Of a DNA stretch of 64,000 nucleotides, positions 5,529 through 31,030 are shown in pieces (the stretch's first letter is position 1; each line of letters starts with the position of its first letter). Below the pieces are notes generated by a model that was not told the origin of the DNA, did not search any database, and saw nothing but the letters and a program-made list of their open reading frames with translations. The stretch comes from a virus: IMG/VR virus record IMGVR_UViG_3300027969_000046. One strand, written 5' to 3'. The position numbers and the translations under genes are program-made.

Positions 5529-7237
5529 TATTATTTCGTAAAATTAAATGGAAAAACCTGTTAAGTACCGGCAACCATTTTACAGAATTACAATTTGATA
5601 AATCACCAAACACATTAATTGTAGGCAGTAATGGTGCAGGTAAATCCACAATGCTTGATGCGTTGTGTTTTGTCCTGTTCGGCAAGCCGTTTCGTGCCGT
5701 GAATAAACCATTGTTGTTGAACTCAATTAATAATAAAGATTGTGTGGTTGAAGTTGAGTTTGATACAGGTAACAAACACTATAAGATTGTTCGTGGTATT
5801 AAGCCAAACATCTTTGAAATCTGGTGTGATGGTGAAATGATTAATCAAGAAGCGGCAGTCAAAGACTACCAAGAACACCTTGAAAAATTTATTCTAAAAT
5901 TAAACTATAAGTCATTTACTCAGATTGTTATTTTGGGTAGTGCTTCGTTTACACCATTCATGCAGTTGCCACCTGCTCATCGTAGAGAGATTATTGAGGA
6001 CTTACTTGATATCCAAATCTTCTCTGCCATGAATAACATTCTTAAAGATAAGGTAATCAATAATAAAGACCTTACTACAAATAAGAAATATGATATTGAT
6101 TTAGGTCAGCAAAAGTATGACCTACAAAAGAAACATCTTGATGGTCTGAAACAAAACAATGATGAAAAGGTAAAAGAATATGATAGTGAGATACAGACTA
6201 ATACGACTACCATTTCCACCTTGGCTGAACAGATTGAAGAATACTCAATCGCTGTCGCCGAGTTACAGTTATTGGTTGATGCCAAGAGTGAAACAGAGGC
6301 TAAGGTCAAGAAGATTACAAAACTTGAATCGCAGATTGAAAGCAACTTATCTAAATTTCGAAAAGATATCAGTTTCTTTCAACACAATGACGATTGTCCA
6401 ACGTGTCGGCAGGCCATTGCCTTGGAGTTCAAAGAGAAAGAACTTGGCGTGCTTACCACCAAGGTTACAGAATGTGACCATGGTTTAACACAACTAGAAC
6501 AGAAATTATTGGAAGAACAAGCAAAGTTAAATTCTATCAACGAAACTCAAAAGAAGATTCAGGCATTACAGATTAAAATTGCTACCAATAACACTTCTAT
6601 TACCGAAACAAACAAATACATTAAGCGCTTAGAGAAACAGTTAGAAGAACTTAAAACAAATACAACCTCTACTGAAAAAGAAGAACAAGAGTTAGCATCT
6701 ATAAATGAAACATTGAAACAGTTAAAAATTGATTTGAATGCTCTTATAGATGAGAAAACATATTATGAAGTGGCTGCAGGTCTATTAAAAGATACTGGTA
6801 TCAAAACAAAGATTATTAAACAATATTTACCAATCATTAACAAATTAGTAAACAAGTATCTGGCTTCATTTGACTTCTTTGTGAACTTTAATCTTGATGA
6901 ATCATTCAAAGAGACCATTAAGTCCAGACACCGTGATGATTTTACCTATGCTTCTTTTAGTGAGGGTGAGAAACAAAAGATTGACTTGGCATTATTGTTT
7001 AGTTGGCGTGCTGTTGCCAAATTAAAGAACTCTGCCAATACTAATCTGTTAATTTTGGATGAAGTGTTTGATTCTAGTTTGGATACCAATGGTACAGAAT
7101 ACTTAATGAACATTCTCCATATGCTAGAAGGCACAAATGTATTTGTTATTTCTCATAAGGGTGATATACTACAAGATAAATTCCGTAGTGTAATTCGTTT
7201 TGAGAAGGTAAAGAATTTTTCGAGGATTGTAAAATGA
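5525..7237 (+). CDS. gp46: Recombination ATPase gp46 (Rad50/SbcC-like)
   Basis: GSNGAGKS, CPTC zinc hook, FSEGEK signature, LILDEVFD. Confidence 0.96.
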   Translation: MILFRKIKWKNLLSTGNHFTELQFDKSPNTLIVGSNGAGKSTMLDALCFVLFGKPFRAVNKPLLLNSINNKDCVVEVEFDTGNKHYKIVRGIKPNIFEIWCDGEMINQEAAVKDYQEHLEKFILKLNYKSFTQIVILGSASFTPFMQLPPAHRREIIEDLLDIQIFSAMNNILKDKVINNKDLTTNKKYDIDLGQQKYDLQKKHLDGLKQNNDEKVKEYDSEIQTNTTTISTLAEQIEEYSIAVAELQLLVDAKSETEAKVKKITKLESQIESNLSKFRKDISFFQHNDDCPTCRQAIALEFKEKELGVLTTKVTECDHGLTQLEQKLLEEQAKLNSINETQKKIQALQIKIATNNTSITETNKYIKRLEKQLEELKTNTTSTEKEEQELASINETLKQLKIDLNALIDEKTYYEVAAGLLKDTGIKTKIIKQYLPIINKLVNKYLASFDFFVNFNLDESFKETIKSRHRDDFTYASFSEGEKQKIDLALLFSWRAVAKLKNSANTNLLILDEVFDSSLDTNGTEYLMNILHMLEGTNVFVISHKGDILQDKFRSVIRFEKVKNFSRIVK

Positions 7238-7425: not shown

Positions 7426-7997
7426 GTGAAGAATTTATTATTGACACAGGCGCAGCCGTAGCTGAAGCCGAAAATATTACACCATTGCCATTGTTTGATG
7501 AGAATCATCCAATGTTAAAACAACCTATTCCAGTATTTGATGTTTATAAATTGCCAAGTCCTTTAACAACTAAACTTATTAAACGACTAAAGATGACTAT
7601 GAAATTACACAATGGTCTTGGTCTATCGGCAAATCAATGTGGTGTATTTGAAAGACTTTTTGTTATTGGTAGTGGTGACGATGTTTGGGCTTGTATTAAT
7701 CCAGAAATTCTTGCAACTTCGGATGATATTGTTAAAGACAAAGAAGGTTGCCTCTCTTTTCCAGGTTTATCTGTTATAATAGACAGACCAAGTTGGATTG
7801 AAGTTCAATACTTTGAAGAAAATGGAAAACAAGTTCAGAAGCGTTTTGAAGGCTTAACGGCAAGATGTTTTCAACATGAACTAGACCATATGAATGGCAT
7901 TCGTATGATTGATAAAGTTAAACCACTTGCATTACAAATGGCAAGAGATAGACAAAAGAAACTAATTAAGAAATTTATGAGATTACATAAACAATGA
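7422..7997 (+). CDS. def: Peptide deformylase
   Basis: GLGLSANQ, EGCLS, QHELDH motifs. Confidence 0.95.
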   Translation: MSEEFIIDTGAAVAEAENITPLPLFDENHPMLKQPIPVFDVYKLPSPLTTKLIKRLKMTMKLHNGLGLSANQCGVFERLFVIGSGDDVWACINPEILATSDDIVKDKEGCLSFPGLSVIIDRPSWIEVQYFEENGKQVQKRFEGLTARCFQHELDHMNGIRMIDKVKPLALQMARDRQKKLIKKFMRLHKQ

Positions 7998-9325
7998 TTG
8001 ATGCAAAAGCAGATATAGAAGAACAGTACCGCCAATGGCAGGAAGAAAATCCTGCTGAATCGTGGGTTGATGTTGATGAGAATGTTCTCAAAGAACAGGT
8101 TATCAACGACCTCTCCTATGTTTCAAAGATGGATGTAAAAGAATATACTCTGTATCAGAAGTGGTGTGAAGTAAAAGAGAAGTATCCCACGGTTGTTAAT
8201 CATACATTGTTCGGTGAAGAAACACAATTAGTTGACCCTAACCAACAGAAAGTTGTTGATGAAGTAAAAGATTCTATTTGGATCCCACAAACAGCCGAAG
8301 ATTATCTTAACCTTGAACCTGTGTTAGAATACACAGATGATTCTGGTAAAGATATGCAGATTGGTATTGATGGTTCTTCATTTGAAGTTGAGAAGAAAAG
8401 AAGCAAAGACTTACCTGAAAGATGGAATACTGTTCGTAATTTCATTTCAACAATGAAGAACAACAGTAACATTGGTCGCAACCTAAACTTCTTGGTTCGT
8501 GACCAGGTCACTAATAAGTATCTAGGTGTCATCTGCATATCATCTGACTTCTTAGACCTTACTCCTCGTGATGAAGTGATTGGTTGGCCTCGTGAACTAA
8601 AGACACAAGGCAGTATGATTAATCACACGGCAATCGGTTCTACTATTGTGCCATTCCAACCACTAGGTTTTAATTATGTTGGTGGCAAGTTACTTGCTTT
8701 ACTTTGTTTATCTGACGAAGTGCAAAGACTTTGGAAGAAACAATATGGTGATGTATTAGTTGGTGTAACAACAACATCATTGTATGGTAGAACAAAGGTT
8801 GATGGTCTATCACAGTATGATAACCTTGACCATTGGCAGAAGATGGGCTTCACGGCAGGTTCAGTATCATTTGAACCAAGTAGAGAAGTCCGTGGCAATA
8901 TCATTAATTGGTTAAAGAAGAATCATACTCGTAAATACTTTGAATGGTATGTTGCAAAGAAACCATCAGGTCAACCATACAAGCGTGACCATAAGAATCG
9001 CTCACTAGGTTTCACTTATAGTAAACTAGGTATTCCTAAAGAGTTGATTAGAACTGACCATGCTCGAGGCATTTACTTTTCACCATTGTATGATAACTCT
9101 TATGAGTTTCTCCGTGGTGAAATCAAAGAAGAACAGTTGGTAAAATCATTTGATACCAGTTACAAGGCCTTAGTTGACATTTGGAAAATCAAACACGCTA
9201 AAGGTCGTATCAAACAGTTGATGAAGAAAGACAGAGTATCATATGAAACATTATTCTATGATGACCTAATCTATCTTACATGGGAAGAAACAAAAGCCAA
9301 ATATCTGGCACAAGTTGGTAGATAA
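7994..9325 (+). CDS. DUF4338/DruA-like protein, probable GNAT/Mom-like fold (paralog 1)
   Basis: GRNLNFLVRD..TNKYLGVI, VPFQPLGFNYVGGKLLA, TTTSLYG..SQY..W..MGFT; clearly homologous to 29918..31030; family name is from recall. Confidence 0.65.
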   Translation: MIDAKADIEEQYRQWQEENPAESWVDVDENVLKEQVINDLSYVSKMDVKEYTLYQKWCEVKEKYPTVVNHTLFGEETQLVDPNQQKVVDEVKDSIWIPQTAEDYLNLEPVLEYTDDSGKDMQIGIDGSSFEVEKKRSKDLPERWNTVRNFISTMKNNSNIGRNLNFLVRDQVTNKYLGVICISSDFLDLTPRDEVIGWPRELKTQGSMINHTAIGSTIVPFQPLGFNYVGGKLLALLCLSDEVQRLWKKQYGDVLVGVTTTSLYGRTKVDGLSQYDNLDHWQKMGFTAGSVSFEPSREVRGNIINWLKKNHTRKYFEWYVAKKPSGQPYKRDHKNRSLGFTYSKLGIPKELIRTDHARGIYFSPLYDNSYEFLRGEIKEEQLVKSFDTSYKALVDIWKIKHAKGRIKQLMKKDRVSYETLFYDDLIYLTWEETKAKYLAQVGR

Positions 9326-9349: not shown

Positions 9350-9378
9350 TTGATTTTCAAATAAAAAGCATATATAAT
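9350..9378 (+). promoter_or_regulatory. sigma70 promoter for the tRNA-like RNA
   Basis: TTGATT-17 nt-TATAAT with A-rich upstream sequence. Confidence 0.8.
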
Positions 9379-9394
9379 TATATACACAGAATAT

Positions 9395-9461
9395 GCGGTG
9401 GTTGTAGAACAGTTTGGGTGTCCAACTCAGGCGCTATGTGCGAATCATAGACACCGCTCCA
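9395..9461 (+). tRNA. Non-canonical tRNA-Gly(TCC)-like RNA with truncated D-arm
   Basis: Acceptor stem GCGGTG/CACCGC, discriminator T, encoded CCA; T-arm CTATG-TGCGAAT-CATAG; anticodon arm with loop TGTCCAA; only 67 nt. Confidence 0.85.
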
Positions 9462-9499
9462 ATTTTTCAAATAAATCTCCATTTATCGTTGAAAAGACT

Positions 9500-9531
9500 A
9501 GACCCTTACCGTAAAAAGTAAGGGTCTTTTT
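9500..9531 (+). terminator. Intrinsic terminator after the tRNA-like RNA
   Basis: AGACCCTTAC / GTAAGGGTCT 10-bp stem followed by a T-run. Confidence 0.85.
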
Positions 9532-9570
9532 ATTGCCTCAAATCTATTTTGGGTAGTGTATAATGGCTGC

Positions 9571-9805: not shown

Positions 9806-12184
9806 ATGGCATTTACAGTCGAATCAAAATCCCAATTGGCAAAATTACTTGCCACAGAAAATTTAACAGTTGAGCACCAGAAGCTTAGCACGGCAAAATT
9901 TGATCCTATGAATCGTGTTTTGTATTGTCCTATCTGGAAAGATATGTCTGGCGCTTTATATGATTTGCTTATGGGTCACGAAGTTGGCCATGCACTTTAT
10001 ACTCCTGCCGATGGTTGGCATGATGCCGTTTCCTCTCTTGGTAGAAAATACAAAGGCTTCTTGAATGTTGTTGAAGATGCTCGTATTGAGAAAAAAGTTA
10101 AACGCAAATTTCCTGGTATTCGTACCTCATTTGTTAAAGGTTATCAAAACCTTTTAGAGCGTGATTTCTTTGGTATTAAAGAGCGTGATGTTAACGGAAT
10201 GTCATTTATTGACCGATTAAACATTTATACAAAATCGGCAGGTGCTATTCAAATTCTTTTTAACCATGAAGAAACAATGCTTGTTAAGCAAGTAGAAGCT
10301 TGTGAAACATGGGAAGATGTTTTACGGGTAACTAAATCTGTTTTTGATTATTCAAAGCATGAGCAATTTGAAACCATGTTACAGTCTTTGGCTTCTATGC
10401 AAGTTGACCAATTTGGTGATGGTGAAGATGGTGATGAAGATTACGATTCTGCCGATTCTGATTATGATGGCGAATCTGATATTGATGGTGATGATGGTGA
10501 TTCTTCAGAAGATGCCGATACCGATTCTGACGGCGATGCTGAAGGCGACAAAGCTGAAGCTAAAGGTAATTCAGAAAAAGACCTAGATGATTTTGAAGGT
10601 GATTATGGCGATGAAGTTGGTAATGAATTGAATCGTAATAAAGATTCTAAAGCATCCAACTTTGACCAGTTCCAACCTAGTTGTGAAACTGATGAGAATT
10701 TCCGTAAGAATGAAACTGAATTATTGTCAGCAGAATCCAAAAACTATGTTTATGGCAAAGTGCCTAAGCCTAACCTTGATGCTATCGTAACACCTGCTAA
10801 ACGGGTTCAACAAGCATTAAGTGAATATTATTTCAATAGCGATTATCGTGCTGAAAGCTTTGAAAAGCAATATACAGAAAAAGTAAAAGAATTCAAATCG
10901 AAGAATGACCGTTACATCGGTTTGTTGGCAAAAGAATTTGAAATGAAGAAAGCTGCTCGTGCTTATGCGAAGGCTAAAGTGTCCAATACTGGTGATATTG
11001 ATATCAATCGTTTATACAAATATCAGGTAGAAGATAACATCTTTAAAAAGATGATGAGAATCCCTAAGGGCAAATCTCACGGTCTGGTCTTGTTACTTGA
11101 CCGCTCAGGTTCCATGTCCCGTAATATGGCAGGTTCTATTGAACAGATTTTGGTTCTTACCATGTTCTGCCGTAAAGTGAATATTCCATTCGTTGTGTAT
11201 GGCTTTGGTGATTCTACTGATGGTCGTTTTGCTGATTATCCACAAGAACAATATAAAAAAGGTTTTACACCAGAAGCTAATGAGTTTGCATTTGAAACAG
11301 TATTTCTCCGTGAATATCTTAATTCAAAAATGAGTAATATGGATTTCAACAATTCAATCCGTAACATGATTGCTTTGCGTGATTCGTATAGTGTCGAAGC
11401 TCGTGGTCGTTATGGCATCGGTCGTCCTTCAAATGAACATCTTGGTAATACACCATTAATTCAGGCGATTGTTGCTCTTGAACCAATTACACAACAATTC
11501 CGCAAAGTGAATAACCTTGACTTGGTTAATCTGGTAATTGTTCATGATGGTGATGCTGATAATAGTAATTCAGTAATGCAAGAGCGTGATTGTTATGGTT
11601 GGGAAAATAAACCTGGCCAAAAAACGGTTCGTCCAAGTTCATTCAATCCTAAATCTGAGAATGTTTATATTAAAGACCGTGATTCTAAATTACAAGTTAA
11701 AGTAGAATCTTGTATTAATGATTCTTATTATACAGTAGAAGAAGGCTTGCGTATCGGTATTTTTGACTGGTACAAAGCAAAAACTGGTGCAAAGATTTTT
11801 GGTTTCTTTATTGCAGGTGGTACTGCTCGTGAAATGCGTGGCGGTATTACAAACAAATATATTGACAAGAATGGCAAAACAATTCGTGAGCAAGTTTATT
11901 CAGGTGATGTGAATGCTCGCTATTATCAATTAGACAAATCTGAATATGTTAAGACTATGGTCAAGAAATTGACAAGTGAAAAATTCTTGCAATCCTACAA
12001 TAAAGGTTACGATTCATTCTTTATTATGCCTGGTGGTAATGAATTGCAAATTGAAGATGATGAGTTGGTTGTAACTGGTGTGGTTACGGCAAGTAAGTTG
12101 AAAACGGCATTTATGAAAATGAATAAAAAGAAGGCAGTTAGCCGTGTGATGGTCTCTCGGTTCATTGATGGCATTGCTGCCTAA
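9806..12184 (+). CDS. HEXXH metallopeptidase-like / vWA (CobT-like) protein
   Basis: HEVGH and NVVEDARIE at the N-terminus, acidic linker, MIDAS LLDRSGSM...TP...DGDA. Confidence 0.85.
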   Translation: MAFTVESKSQLAKLLATENLTVEHQKLSTAKFDPMNRVLYCPIWKDMSGALYDLLMGHEVGHALYTPADGWHDAVSSLGRKYKGFLNVVEDARIEKKVKRKFPGIRTSFVKGYQNLLERDFFGIKERDVNGMSFIDRLNIYTKSAGAIQILFNHEETMLVKQVEACETWEDVLRVTKSVFDYSKHEQFETMLQSLASMQVDQFGDGEDGDEDYDSADSDYDGESDIDGDDGDSSEDADTDSDGDAEGDKAEAKGNSEKDLDDFEGDYGDEVGNELNRNKDSKASNFDQFQPSCETDENFRKNETELLSAESKNYVYGKVPKPNLDAIVTPAKRVQQALSEYYFNSDYRAESFEKQYTEKVKEFKSKNDRYIGLLAKEFEMKKAARAYAKAKVSNTGDIDINRLYKYQVEDNIFKKMMRIPKGKSHGLVLLLDRSGSMSRNMAGSIEQILVLTMFCRKVNIPFVVYGFGDSTDGRFADYPQEQYKKGFTPEANEFAFETVFLREYLNSKMSNMDFNNSIRNMIALRDSYSVEARGRYGIGRPSNEHLGNTPLIQAIVALEPITQQFRKVNNLDLVNLVIVHDGDADNSNSVMQERDCYGWENKPGQKTVRPSSFNPKSENVYIKDRDSKLQVKVESCINDSYYTVEEGLRIGIFDWYKAKTGAKIFGFFIAGGTAREMRGGITNKYIDKNGKTIREQVYSGDVNARYYQLDKSEYVKTMVKKLTSEKFLQSYNKGYDSFFIMPGGNELQIEDDELVVTGVVTASKLKTAFMKMNKKKAVSRVMVSRFIDGIAA

Positions 12185-29325: not shown

Positions 29326-29921
29326 AACATAGAACGCTTTACAACAAGCTACATTCATTTGCCCCTAAGTTTGAAGGAGTAAAAACTAGAGGCCAAATAA
29401 TGTGGTGGGTTCGTAAGATGTTATTGCCTTATAATGTTAAAGTCAGTAGATTGATTGATAAAACAAATCAATGTGTTAGTGGTTTAACTATTGGTGGGTT
29501 CTATGACCCATCAGCCGATTATGATGAGAAGGACATTGAAATCTATTTAATGTTCCGTGAAGAACATAGTTGTATTTGGTTTGATTATTTGGATATTGAA
29601 GTAATGATTAATGAAATATTTAAAACATTAGTCCATGAAAAACGCCATCGTTACCAATTCAAACAAAGAGGACTTGCCTATGGGCCAGTTTACCGATTGT
29701 GTAAGAAGATAGAAGATGAAAATTTGGCAAACGAATTAAAATATTATGGTGACGCCGATGAGATAGATGCCTATGCTCAAGAGGCAATCATTGAAGAACG
29801 ACTATATGGACACTCGGATACTAAGGCTAAATATAAGGAACTATTTGACATCCATGATAAAAAGGTGTATAATAGCTTCTTAAAGAAATATTACACATAC
29901 GATAGAAAAGTTACCCTATGA
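29322..29921 (+). CDS. Hypothetical protein with HEXXH motif
   Basis: LVHEKRHRYQ...DEIDAYA. Confidence 0.6.
   Translation: MKHRTLYNKLHSFAPKFEGVKTRGQIMWWVRKMLLPYNVKVSRLIDKTNQCVSGLTIGGFYDPSADYDEKDIEIYLMFREEHSCIWFDYLDIEVMINEIFKTLVHEKRHRYQFKQRGLAYGPVYRLCKKIEDENLANELKYYGDADEIDAYAQEAIIEERLYGHSDTKAKYKELFDIHDKKVYNSFLKKYYTYDRKVTL
29845..29873 (+). promoter_or_regulatory. Consensus sigma70 promoter for DUF4338 paralog 2
   Basis: TTGACA-17 nt-TATAAT, inside the upstream gene. Confidence 0.8.
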
Positions 29922-31030
29922 ATTTGAGTAGAGAACAGGCAAACTATGTTGCCTCGGTGTTTGAAGATTACTTTGGTAACTTCAATCGAATTGATGAGTA
30001 TATGCGTGAGCAGAAACTTAACTCATTGAAAGATTGGCCAGTGGCATTACCAGGATGTGGACCTGAAGAAGATTTGTTTTCAGATTTCAATATGGATCCA
30101 CAAAACATGGAGTTTGATATCGTTGACCTCGAATCACAGAGGTGGCAACAATACTTAGATATCATTTCTTCGCACAATAACCTTACATCACCTGGCCGTA
30201 ATGTTAGACTAGCAGTATTAGAAAAGACGACTCAGAAGTGGGTTGGTTTTATTCGTATCGGTTCTCCAACTATTATGATGAAGCCTCGCAATCAGTTACT
30301 TGATTGTGTTATCACTAATGAAACTGCAACGACCAAATCATTCAATAATGCTTCTGCAATGGGTTTCGTTATCGTACCTGCACAACCATTTGGTTACAAC
30401 TATCTTGGTGGTAAGTTACTTGCTGCTATCTGTTGTTCACATGAAGTCCGTGAAATTCTCAATAAGAAGTATAATATGAATATGTGCTTGTTTGAAACCA
30501 CATCTTTGTATGGCACATCAAAGGCTATCTCACAATATGATGGTATGAAACCATATTTACGATTCAAAGGTGTAACTGAATCAGATTTTCTACCAATGAT
30601 GCACGGTAAACCATATGATGACCTCAAAAATTATGTTGAAGGTATTGTTGGTGAGTTTGTTCCGCCTGATGCCTCTAGCCGTAAGTTAAAGATTAGTACC
30701 ACAATCATTGCTATGACCAAGGCTGCATTGAAACCACATAAAGAAGATTATGATAGGTTCATGGCTACAATCAACAAGGCCAAGTCCCTAACAGAACAGA
30801 AGCGATACTATGTGTCCAACTATGGTATTGCAAACTATAAAGATATTGTTCTTGGAAAAACCTCTGAGATTGTCAAAGATGAGAACTATGATAAACACTA
30901 TTTGGCTAACATTACAGAGTGGTGGAAGAAGAAAGCATCTGCTCGCTTCGTATCATTAAAACAACAGGCCAAGGTCAGGACAGAGATGGAAGTATGGACA
31001 AGTGGCAAAGTCCTTGACATAATCCGTTGA
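29918..31030 (+). CDS. DUF4338/DruA-like protein, probable GNAT/Mom-like fold (paralog 2)
   Basis: PGRNVRLAVLEKTTQKWVGFI, VPAQPFGYNYLGGKLLA, ETTSLYG..SQYDG. Confidence 0.65.
   Translation: MNLSREQANYVASVFEDYFGNFNRIDEYMREQKLNSLKDWPVALPGCGPEEDLFSDFNMDPQNMEFDIVDLESQRWQQYLDIISSHNNLTSPGRNVRLAVLEKTTQKWVGFIRIGSPTIMMKPRNQLLDCVITNETATTKSFNNASAMGFVIVPAQPFGYNYLGGKLLAAICCSHEVREILNKKYNMNMCLFETTSLYGTSKAISQYDGMKPYLRFKGVTESDFLPMMHGKPYDDLKNYVEGIVGEFVPPDASSRKLKISTTIIAMTKAALKPHKEDYDRFMATINKAKSLTEQKRYYVSNYGIANYKDIVLGKTSEIVKDENYDKHYLANITEWWKKKASARFVSLKQQAKVRTEMEVWTSGKVLDIIR

Follow-up and report, generated by a model that had tools for sequence, protein, structure and literature searches.

The phage Mu enzyme Mom moves glycine from Gly-tRNAGly to the N6 of adenine in double-stranded DNA, takes all tRNAGly isoacceptors and probably recognizes its substrate chiefly at the acceptor end (PMC13219725). 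It was for Mom, and only recently, that tRNA-dependent DNA hypermodification was shown, the tRNA used being that of the host. In staphylococci, non-proteinogenic tRNAGly species keep the determinants of glycyl-tRNA synthetase (GlyRS), have a T loop with UGC instead of UUC along with altered D and T regions; they escape EF-Tu and feed the GNAT-fold enzymes FemX/FmhB, FemA, and FemB (PMC7826273). These tRNAs are full-size and cellular, have a normal 7-nt anticodon loop and belong to a lineage restricted to staphylococci, and the GlyRS identity determinants given in the same work are G1-C72, C2-G71, G3-C70, U73, C35, and C36 (PMC7826273). DUF4338, which has been termed a GNAT domain (PMC10853773), is found in DruA of the type I Druantia bacterial defence operon, where it sits with DruB-E. 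The Druantia literature yielded nothing on DruA biochemistry and reports no tRNA-like partner.

Here, we describe a 67-nt miniature tRNA-Gly-like RNA (9395..9461) and a neighboring DUF4338/DruA-domain GNAT gene (7994..9325), both on the + strand of a 64-kb stretch of viral DNA (IMG/VR record IMGVR_UViG_3300027969_000046, hereafter the window). Like the staphylococcal tRNAs, the window RNA has a UGCGAAU T loop, a D loop lacking GG and the full GlyRS determinants, but it is viral, belongs to a family 63 to 71 nt long and has a 4- to 5-nt loop and a 3-bp D arm. As the staphylococcal tRNAs form a lineage of their own within staphylococci only, the likeness is convergent and the phage RNA arose independently. 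The parallel with Mom is that both are phage systems with a GNAT-fold enzyme, Mom being, by a narrow margin, the best structural match of the neighboring protein (PDB 8bv8), and that the acceptor end, probably Mom's recognition site, is the part conserved in the mini RNA. Unlike Mom, which scavenges the ordinary tRNAGly of its host, the phage here would encode its own miniature, non-decoding carrier, and the candidate partner is a DUF4338/DruA protein about twice the size of Mom and without detectable sequence homology to it. That protein shares its Pfam and PADLOC family with type I Druantia DruA; however, its gene stands alone in the phage, next to a putative RNA partner, rather than within a defence operon. 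In concept, the model set out below would join the mechanism of Mom to the strategy of the staphylococcal non-proteinogenic tRNAGly. No published description of a mini glycine-tRNA/DUF4338 pairing was found in the literature, and the pelagimyophage literature does not mention the RNA.

The RNA gene and its surroundings

The window derives from a T4-like myovirus. Its large ORFs are all on the + strand and include those for a UvsW helicase, gp46/47-like recombination nucleases, a peptide deformylase, and a CobS-like AAA protein. Among cultured phages, its nearest relatives are Mosig and HTVC008M, both Pelagibacter phages of the Kyanoviridae, while IMG/VR contigs make up most of the metagenomic relatives. 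Since a DNA search of GenBank phages with the RNA locus gave no match, relatives were reached through the neighboring protein: 80 related IMG/VR loci were fetched with the 443-aa DUF4338 protein as query and, together with the window, the Mosig and HTVC008M loci, and L083, make up the 84 protein-first sources. Two RNA-first scans of IMG/VR enlarged the collection of RNAs to 118 candidates, of which 101 to 107 could be parsed. The covariance models CM R1 and R2 skip divergent subfamilies under default filters, hence regular-expression and hairpin parsing was added. A scan in which the end sequences were left free returned coding-sequence noise and one true variant, GCGA...UCGC.

Folded alone, the RNA adopts a cloverleaf, and its sequence reads 5' GCGGUGG ... 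CACCGC-U-CCA 3'. A first-pass annotation made from the letters of the window had listed G1-C72, C2-G71, G3-C70, U73, and an encoded CCA, all of which are present at 9395-9461 in the 5' GCGG and 3' CCGC-U-CCA ends. The 5' strand of the acceptor stem, which holds the first three of these pairs, spans 9395..9400 and pairs with 9452-9457, giving a 6-bp stem in the minimum free energy (MFE) fold; discriminator U73 and the CCA end occupy 9458..9461. In agreement with the annotation, the D arm (9401..9410) is cut to 10 nt (GUU-GUAG-AAC), that is, a 3-bp stem and a 4-nt GUAG loop without G18G19. The same annotation read 7-66 as a mismatch, and G does face A there, but this is no true mismatch since G7 pairs within the 3-bp D stem. 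The anticodon-like arm (9412..9432) carries the CC at 9422-9423 and the G at the would-be position 33 that had been pointed out. Its stem does extend, as proposed, yet to 8 bp rather than 7 in both the MFE fold and the comparative data, which leaves the 5-nt loop GUCCA (9420-9424). A variable region of 1 nt (MFE fold) separates it from the T arm (9434..9450), where a 5-bp stem and a 7-nt loop match the reported CUAUG-UGCGAAU-CAUAG, including A51-U63.

CM R1 scored 9395-9461 at 73 bits (E 2e-17) and found no other copy in the window. Upstream, a promoter scan identified a sigma-70-type promoter at 9350..9378 (+; TTGATT, 17-nt spacer, TATAAT; 10/12 matches) whose -10 element ends 16 nt before G1. 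A short 5' leader is predicted at 9386..9394 (+) and would be removed by RNase P. Downstream, a terminator scan placed an intrinsic terminator, a 10-bp GC-rich hairpin followed by a U tract, at 9500..9532 (+). Equivalent promoters upstream of the RNA and similar terminators 3' of it occur in most related loci, and the whole-transcript fold lies far below shuffled controls (z -3.9). A genuine RNA gene, equipped with a promoter and a terminator of its own, thus lies at 9395-9461. When the whole transcript is folded, the interval between CCA and terminator forms a 3' trailer hairpin (9464..9495, +), which may be a processing signal. Its loop has a AAAUCUCCA motif, an echo of the GCUCCA 3' end, that is common to the window and three related loci (L013, L027, and L072).

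In line with the expectation that standard tRNA finders might miss the RNA, ARAGORN called no tRNA in the 64-kb window, Rfam gave no match to the window at gathering score, and RF00005 was absent even at E<=10 when 301 nt around the RNA were tested. Weak Rfam matches around the locus (S774, Yfr10, RsaD, and rliG) were far below gathering score and were dismissed. Because standard tRNA finders are blind to the RNA, it is missing from current annotations.

Conservation of structure and glycine identity, and loss of decoding features

The family comprises more than 100 distinct sequences of 63 to 71 nt in related phage contigs, each of which folds alone to the same four-helix cloverleaf. In the protein-first set, the same ends (GCGG ... 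CCGC-U-CCA) were carried by 63 of 84 sources, and 41 distinct sequences of 63 to 74 nt were found beside DUF4338 homologs, with interiors that were often unalignable. In an alignment of 23 sequences (A3), 91% of cells were paired, compared with 37 to 50% (about 42%) when partners were slid, and 17 of 23 pairs showed compensatory changes distributed over all four helices, a result that none of 500 shuffles equaled. An alignment of a second subfamily (A5) was 87% paired, with compensatory changes in 12 of 20 pairs, and RNAalifold recovered the helices independently. Within A3, both-side changes occurred in all three pairs of the mini D stem, covariation in all eight of the anticodon-like stem (closing pair AU 9, UA 6, GC 5, CG 2) and in four of five of the T stem. 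Acceptor pairs 1-4 were constant in A3, while pairs 5-7 were free to vary, pair 6-67 exchanging GC, CG, and UA. The second copy of one tandem (L082:4077-4144) has A4-U69 instead of G4-C69 and retains pairs 1-3, U73, and CCA. Tandem mini tRNAGly-like genes with differing interiors occur at L082:4007-4144 and in L229 (two copies, - strand).

Across every member found, the ends-relaxed scan included, G1-C72, C2-G71, G3-C70, U73, and CCA were constant, and that scan revealed no variant of the ends besides GCGA...UCGC. T loops differed by subfamily, the UGC type being confined to some and others having UUUAACU or AGCAAAG. The equivalents of U54/A58 were retained in 89 of 101 sequences. The last nucleotide of the D loop covaries with nucleotide 3 of the T loop (G:C, A:U, U:A), exchanges that follow subfamilies and hence represent few independent events; this covariation is suggestive of an L-shaped fold with the elbow contact preserved.

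The first-pass annotation had argued for selection rather than decay, with random decay among homologs as the opposing outcome. Random decay was not seen: homologs keep the cloverleaf by compensatory changes, and the GlyRS identity nucleotides are fixed in RNAs whose interiors have diverged beyond alignment. The compensatory pairs and the invariant identity nucleotides argue for selection on structure and chargeability. Rejection by tRNA finders might speak for a tRNA pseudogene in decay or for a cloverleaf that arose by chance, but such a reading has next to no probability in the face of strong covariation, invariant identity nucleotides, conserved promoter and terminator, and more than 100 distinct sequences.

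Loss of decoding features proved to be family-wide and stronger than the initial annotation had stated. The anticodon-like loop is 4 to 5 nt long in 94 of 101 parsed sequences (GUCCA, CCCA, CCCC, UUCCC, UACCC, CACCC), and the pair closing it is always Watson-Crick and covaries (UA 52, CG 26, AU 13, GC 9). Opening of this pair would yield G33, as in the window, or a pyrimidine at 37, and a 4-nt loop cannot reach 7 nt. At the equivalent of position 34, the family has U, A, or C, which leaves the "UCC anticodon" in the original tRNA-Gly(UCC) designation with little meaning. G18G19, T-psi-C, and the 8-9 linker are all absent from the mini RNA, and the variable region is 0 to 3 nt. In common with canonical elongators, the RNA has four arms, an acceptor stem of 6 to 7 bp, a T stem of 5 bp, an encoded CCA, and the U54/A58 pair; it differs in having no 7-nt loop with U33 and purine 37, no G18G19 and no T-psi-C, and in being negative with ARAGORN and RF00005. 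Given the 4- to 5-nt loop, the covarying closing pair, the variable position 34, and the lost G18G19, T-psi-C, and 8-9 linker, ribosomal decoding by the mini RNA is very unlikely.

tRNAs are common in phages, and one could suppose that this RNA is a reduced yet decoding elongator tRNAGly that supplements host tRNAs at GGN codons. Its tRNAGly descent, and the 74-nt versions with a normal 7-nt UUACCAA loop in related marine phages, fit such a role, but the short loop is shut by a covarying Watson-Crick pair whose opening gives G33 or pyrimidine 37. An ACC "anticodon" in many members, the missing G18G19 and T-psi-C, rejection by ARAGORN and RF00005, and one phage in which the mini form stands beside a canonical tRNAGly(GCC) all weigh against it as well, leaving it a slight probability. 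The RNA is very probably a conserved, non-decoding derivative of tRNAGly; of the rival readings considered here and below, residual decoding and decay alone are nearly excluded.

The mini RNA evidently descends from a phage tRNAGly, as judged from a graded series of sequences. One 133-kb contig has a canonical tRNAGly(UCC) within a tRNA cluster and no mini RNA, HTVC008M and Mosig have 74-nt ACC forms that combine the normal 7-nt UUACCAA loop with aberrant D and T loops, and the other relatives have mini forms. The 74-nt genes lie ~3 to 4 kb downstream of the DUF4338 gene, at L002:8998-9071 in HTVC008M (KC465899.1) and at MT647606.1 7779-7852 (-) in Mosig. The HTVC008M gene is missing from the annotated feature table of that genome; ARAGORN calls it and does not call that of Mosig.

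Further tRNA-like elements were noted in these and other genomes. At L002:5117-5160 (HTVC008M) and L001:5666-5710 (Mosig), GTAGAACA is followed by TGTGCGA; the two recall the window-type RNA in its D arm and T loop but come without an acceptor stem. The two spots are syntenic, lying downstream of DUF4338 in HTVC008M and of an intervening MazG gene in Mosig; CM R1 and R2 gave no score on either, and the stretches may, from their sequence, be relics of a mini tRNA. In L192 (- strand; 11% complete), a 71-nt mini-type RNA with a 4-nt UCCC loop adjoins a canonical tRNA-Gly(gcc) at 123-196 within a cluster of 14 tRNAs on a phage fragment that looks unrelated. Many other viral contigs have full-length tRNAGly genes of 75 to 76 nt with a UGCGAAU or UGCAAUU T loop and a D loop without GG (e.g., L210:11673-11747, L249, and L232), which resemble the staphylococcal non-proteinogenic tRNAGly. 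An 81-nt GCGGAGC...UCCGC-UCCA RNA that Rfam does not recognize occurs in L213, L228, L234, and L238.

Set against the losses elsewhere, the bacterial tRNAGly identity set is complete in the window RNA. Within the family, CC was found in the distal loop of 104 of 107 sequences parsed without requiring it, and of 36 of 36 in the protein-anchored set, the rest of the identity set being fixed. The same glycine set is known from work on tRNA identity in E. coli. Selection appears to act on chargeability, and the RNA is probably charged with glycine, although the 4- to 5-nt loop might weaken GlyRS recognition of C35 and C36.

The DUF4338/DruA protein and its linkage to the RNA

With few exceptions, the RNA of the 63 carriers in the protein-first set comes immediately 3' of the DUF4338 gene. 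When loci were gathered through the RNA instead (UUUAACU subtype), DUF4338 ended just upstream in 98 of 114 and lay elsewhere in the locus in 11 more. In the L046/L048-L055 lineage (e.g., L048:4318-4385), the RNA begins 2 nt past the DUF4338 stop codon and is followed by a terminator, and no separate promoter for the RNA was found; the 2-nt gap and the absence of a promoter imply that enzyme and RNA are cotranscribed there. In some relatives, the distance from RNA to gene is 4 to 7 kb, and a 70-nt subtype follows an SprT-like ORF with DUF4338 ~7 kb off. Larger contigs with a nonadjacent RNA encoded DUF4338 in 5 of 5 cases, and DUF4338 was not seen in five small contigs with mini-type RNAs, but these are 7 to 56% complete. 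Three more distant DUF4338 homologs had no tRNA-like RNA within 6 kb. At L056:4330-4530, a GC-rich and apparently structured segment follows the DUF4338 gene in the place of the mini RNA; it had no Rfam match at gathering score.

The linked loci all come from one phage lineage, so that adjacency may in part be inherited synteny. Taken to its end, this would mean that the tRNA-like RNA, charged or not, donates glycine to some other enzyme of phage or host, or has a regulatory role in which it binds a stress sensor, the CCA-adding enzyme, GlyRS, or RNase P, and that its place beside DUF4338 is inherited order. The RNA does follow a cobS-like gene in HTVC008M and Mosig, follows an SprT-like ORF or sits within a tRNA cluster elsewhere, and is lacking beside distant DUF4338 genes. 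However, adjacency has outlasted divergence of the RNA interior beyond alignment and a drop of the protein to ~66% identity, DUF4338 is present in 109 of the 114 RNA-first loci, and one lineage cotranscribes the two, which makes another partner rather unlikely.

The protein proposed as the partner enzyme (443 aa) matched Pfam PF14236 (E 8e-23, 81.5 bits, cut-off 27) and PADLOC DruA (E 6e-19), PF14236 and phrog_19197 being its only family matches. Its AlphaFold2 model (pLDDT 93.6 for the whole protein, 91.7 for the domain only) has a core with a GNAT fold and a helical insertion. Mom was first in four structure searches, one of them by highest TM-score. In exhaustive searches, Mom (8bv8) was the top match both with the whole protein, at Z 9.6 over 168 aligned residues, and with the domain only (Z 11.8, 172 residues), ordinary CoA-dependent GNATs being less than 1 Z unit behind. 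Foldseek with the domain ranked Mom first at TM 0.40, with no other listed chain above 0.35 and most at or below 0.30. FemA and TacT3 were also among the structural matches. Sequence comparisons gave no sign of homology to Mom: PF25680 did not match, the PHROGs differ (Mom is phrog_1384), and hhalign against Mom with single sequence and profile found none, the profile-profile probability being 0.6%. PDB sequence searches with the protein and its profile returned nothing meaningful, and a 14-residue R-G-V/I-Y match to Mom after the helical insertion was not significant. As sequence and profile homology are absent, the protein is not a member of the Mom family. A nearly invariant Q-P-x-G...G-G-K loop at beta4-alpha3, the usual CoA-pyrophosphate site of GNATs, is conserved, so an acyl-CoA donor for the DUF4338 enzyme is possible.

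A second DUF4338 paralog of 370 aa (29918..31030, +; PF14236 E 1e-9, phrog_19197) shares 39% identity with the 443-aa protein in the GNAT core. It comes with a separate promoter region and is the version common to cyanomyophages. CM R1 on the window found no tRNA-like RNA adjoining it, and it is possible that this paralog is a second user of the RNA. One 66-kb phage contig (L326) encodes a DUF4338/DruA protein and a Mom-family PF25680 protein, at 6001-7212 and 10041-10868, 3 kb apart. As L326 encodes both, the DUF4338 and Mom GNATs are not simply interchangeable.

A putative glycyl carrier and its implications

We propose that the RNA, driven by its own early-type promoter and cotranscribed with the upstream gene in some relatives, would be trimmed to G1 and the encoded CCA and fold to a compact L-shape. 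Host glycyl-tRNA synthetase would load it with glycine through the full identity set that is kept (G1-C72, C2-G71, G3-C70, U73, C35, and C36). The long stem with its 4- to 5-nt loop and the noncanonical D and T loops would exclude it from translation, and EF-Tu avoidance can be inferred by analogy with the staphylococcal tRNAs. The glycyl-RNA would then be a dedicated donor of activated glycine for the neighboring DUF4338/DruA-family GNAT. We consider it an even bet that the RNA is such a dedicated, non-ribosomal glycyl carrier, charged by host GlyRS and used by the adjacent GNAT, and the donor role for the DUF4338 enzyme, by analogy, is equally balanced. DNA as the target of glycyl transfer is doubtful, and would follow Mom.

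The invariance of the acceptor end could also point to a decoy or sponge that mimics the acceptor end of host tRNAGly and absorbs defence toxins of the host that probe it, such as FaRel2-type toxSAS and TacT-type GNAT toxins, or an anticodon nuclease, guarding the tRNAGly of the host in the course of infection. Acceptor stem, U73, and CCA are precisely the invariant parts, the RNA is served by its own strong promoter, and FaRel2 is reported to pick tRNAGly via the acceptor stem (PMC11559606). A decoy for acceptor-end toxins, however, has no need of the conserved CC in the distal loop, nor of tight linkage to or cotranscription with a GNAT gene. Decoying of an anticodon nuclease, the alternative raised at the outset by the annotation, is unlikely as the 4- to 5-nt loop resembles neither an anticodon loop nor a substrate of such nucleases. 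The probable hosts, of the SAR11/LD12 type, are not known to have a toxin of this kind, and we regard a decoy function as improbable.

In its broadest form, the glycyl-carrier model holds that DUF4338/DruA GNATs use a private mini carrier to glycylate phage DNA or another macromolecule and so spare host tRNAGly, that the RNA is the first virus-encoded non-ribosomal tRNA, and that DruA and other DUF4338 proteins are aminoacyl-tRNA-dependent transferases; we hold this tentatively, at somewhat short of even chances. If true, viruses can evolve dedicated non-translational tRNAs, and comparative data alone would define a natural minimal GlyRS substrate, in which a scaffold of 63 nt bears the acceptor stem, U73, and a CC loop. 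For DUF4338/DruA, including the Druantia defence component, there would for the first time be a biochemical hypothesis open to testing. The RNA family abounds in T4-like phages that are presumably of freshwater and marine origin and are relatives of SAR11 phages, hence any resulting DNA modification would bear on phage-host conflict and on sequencing-based detection in major aquatic ecosystems.
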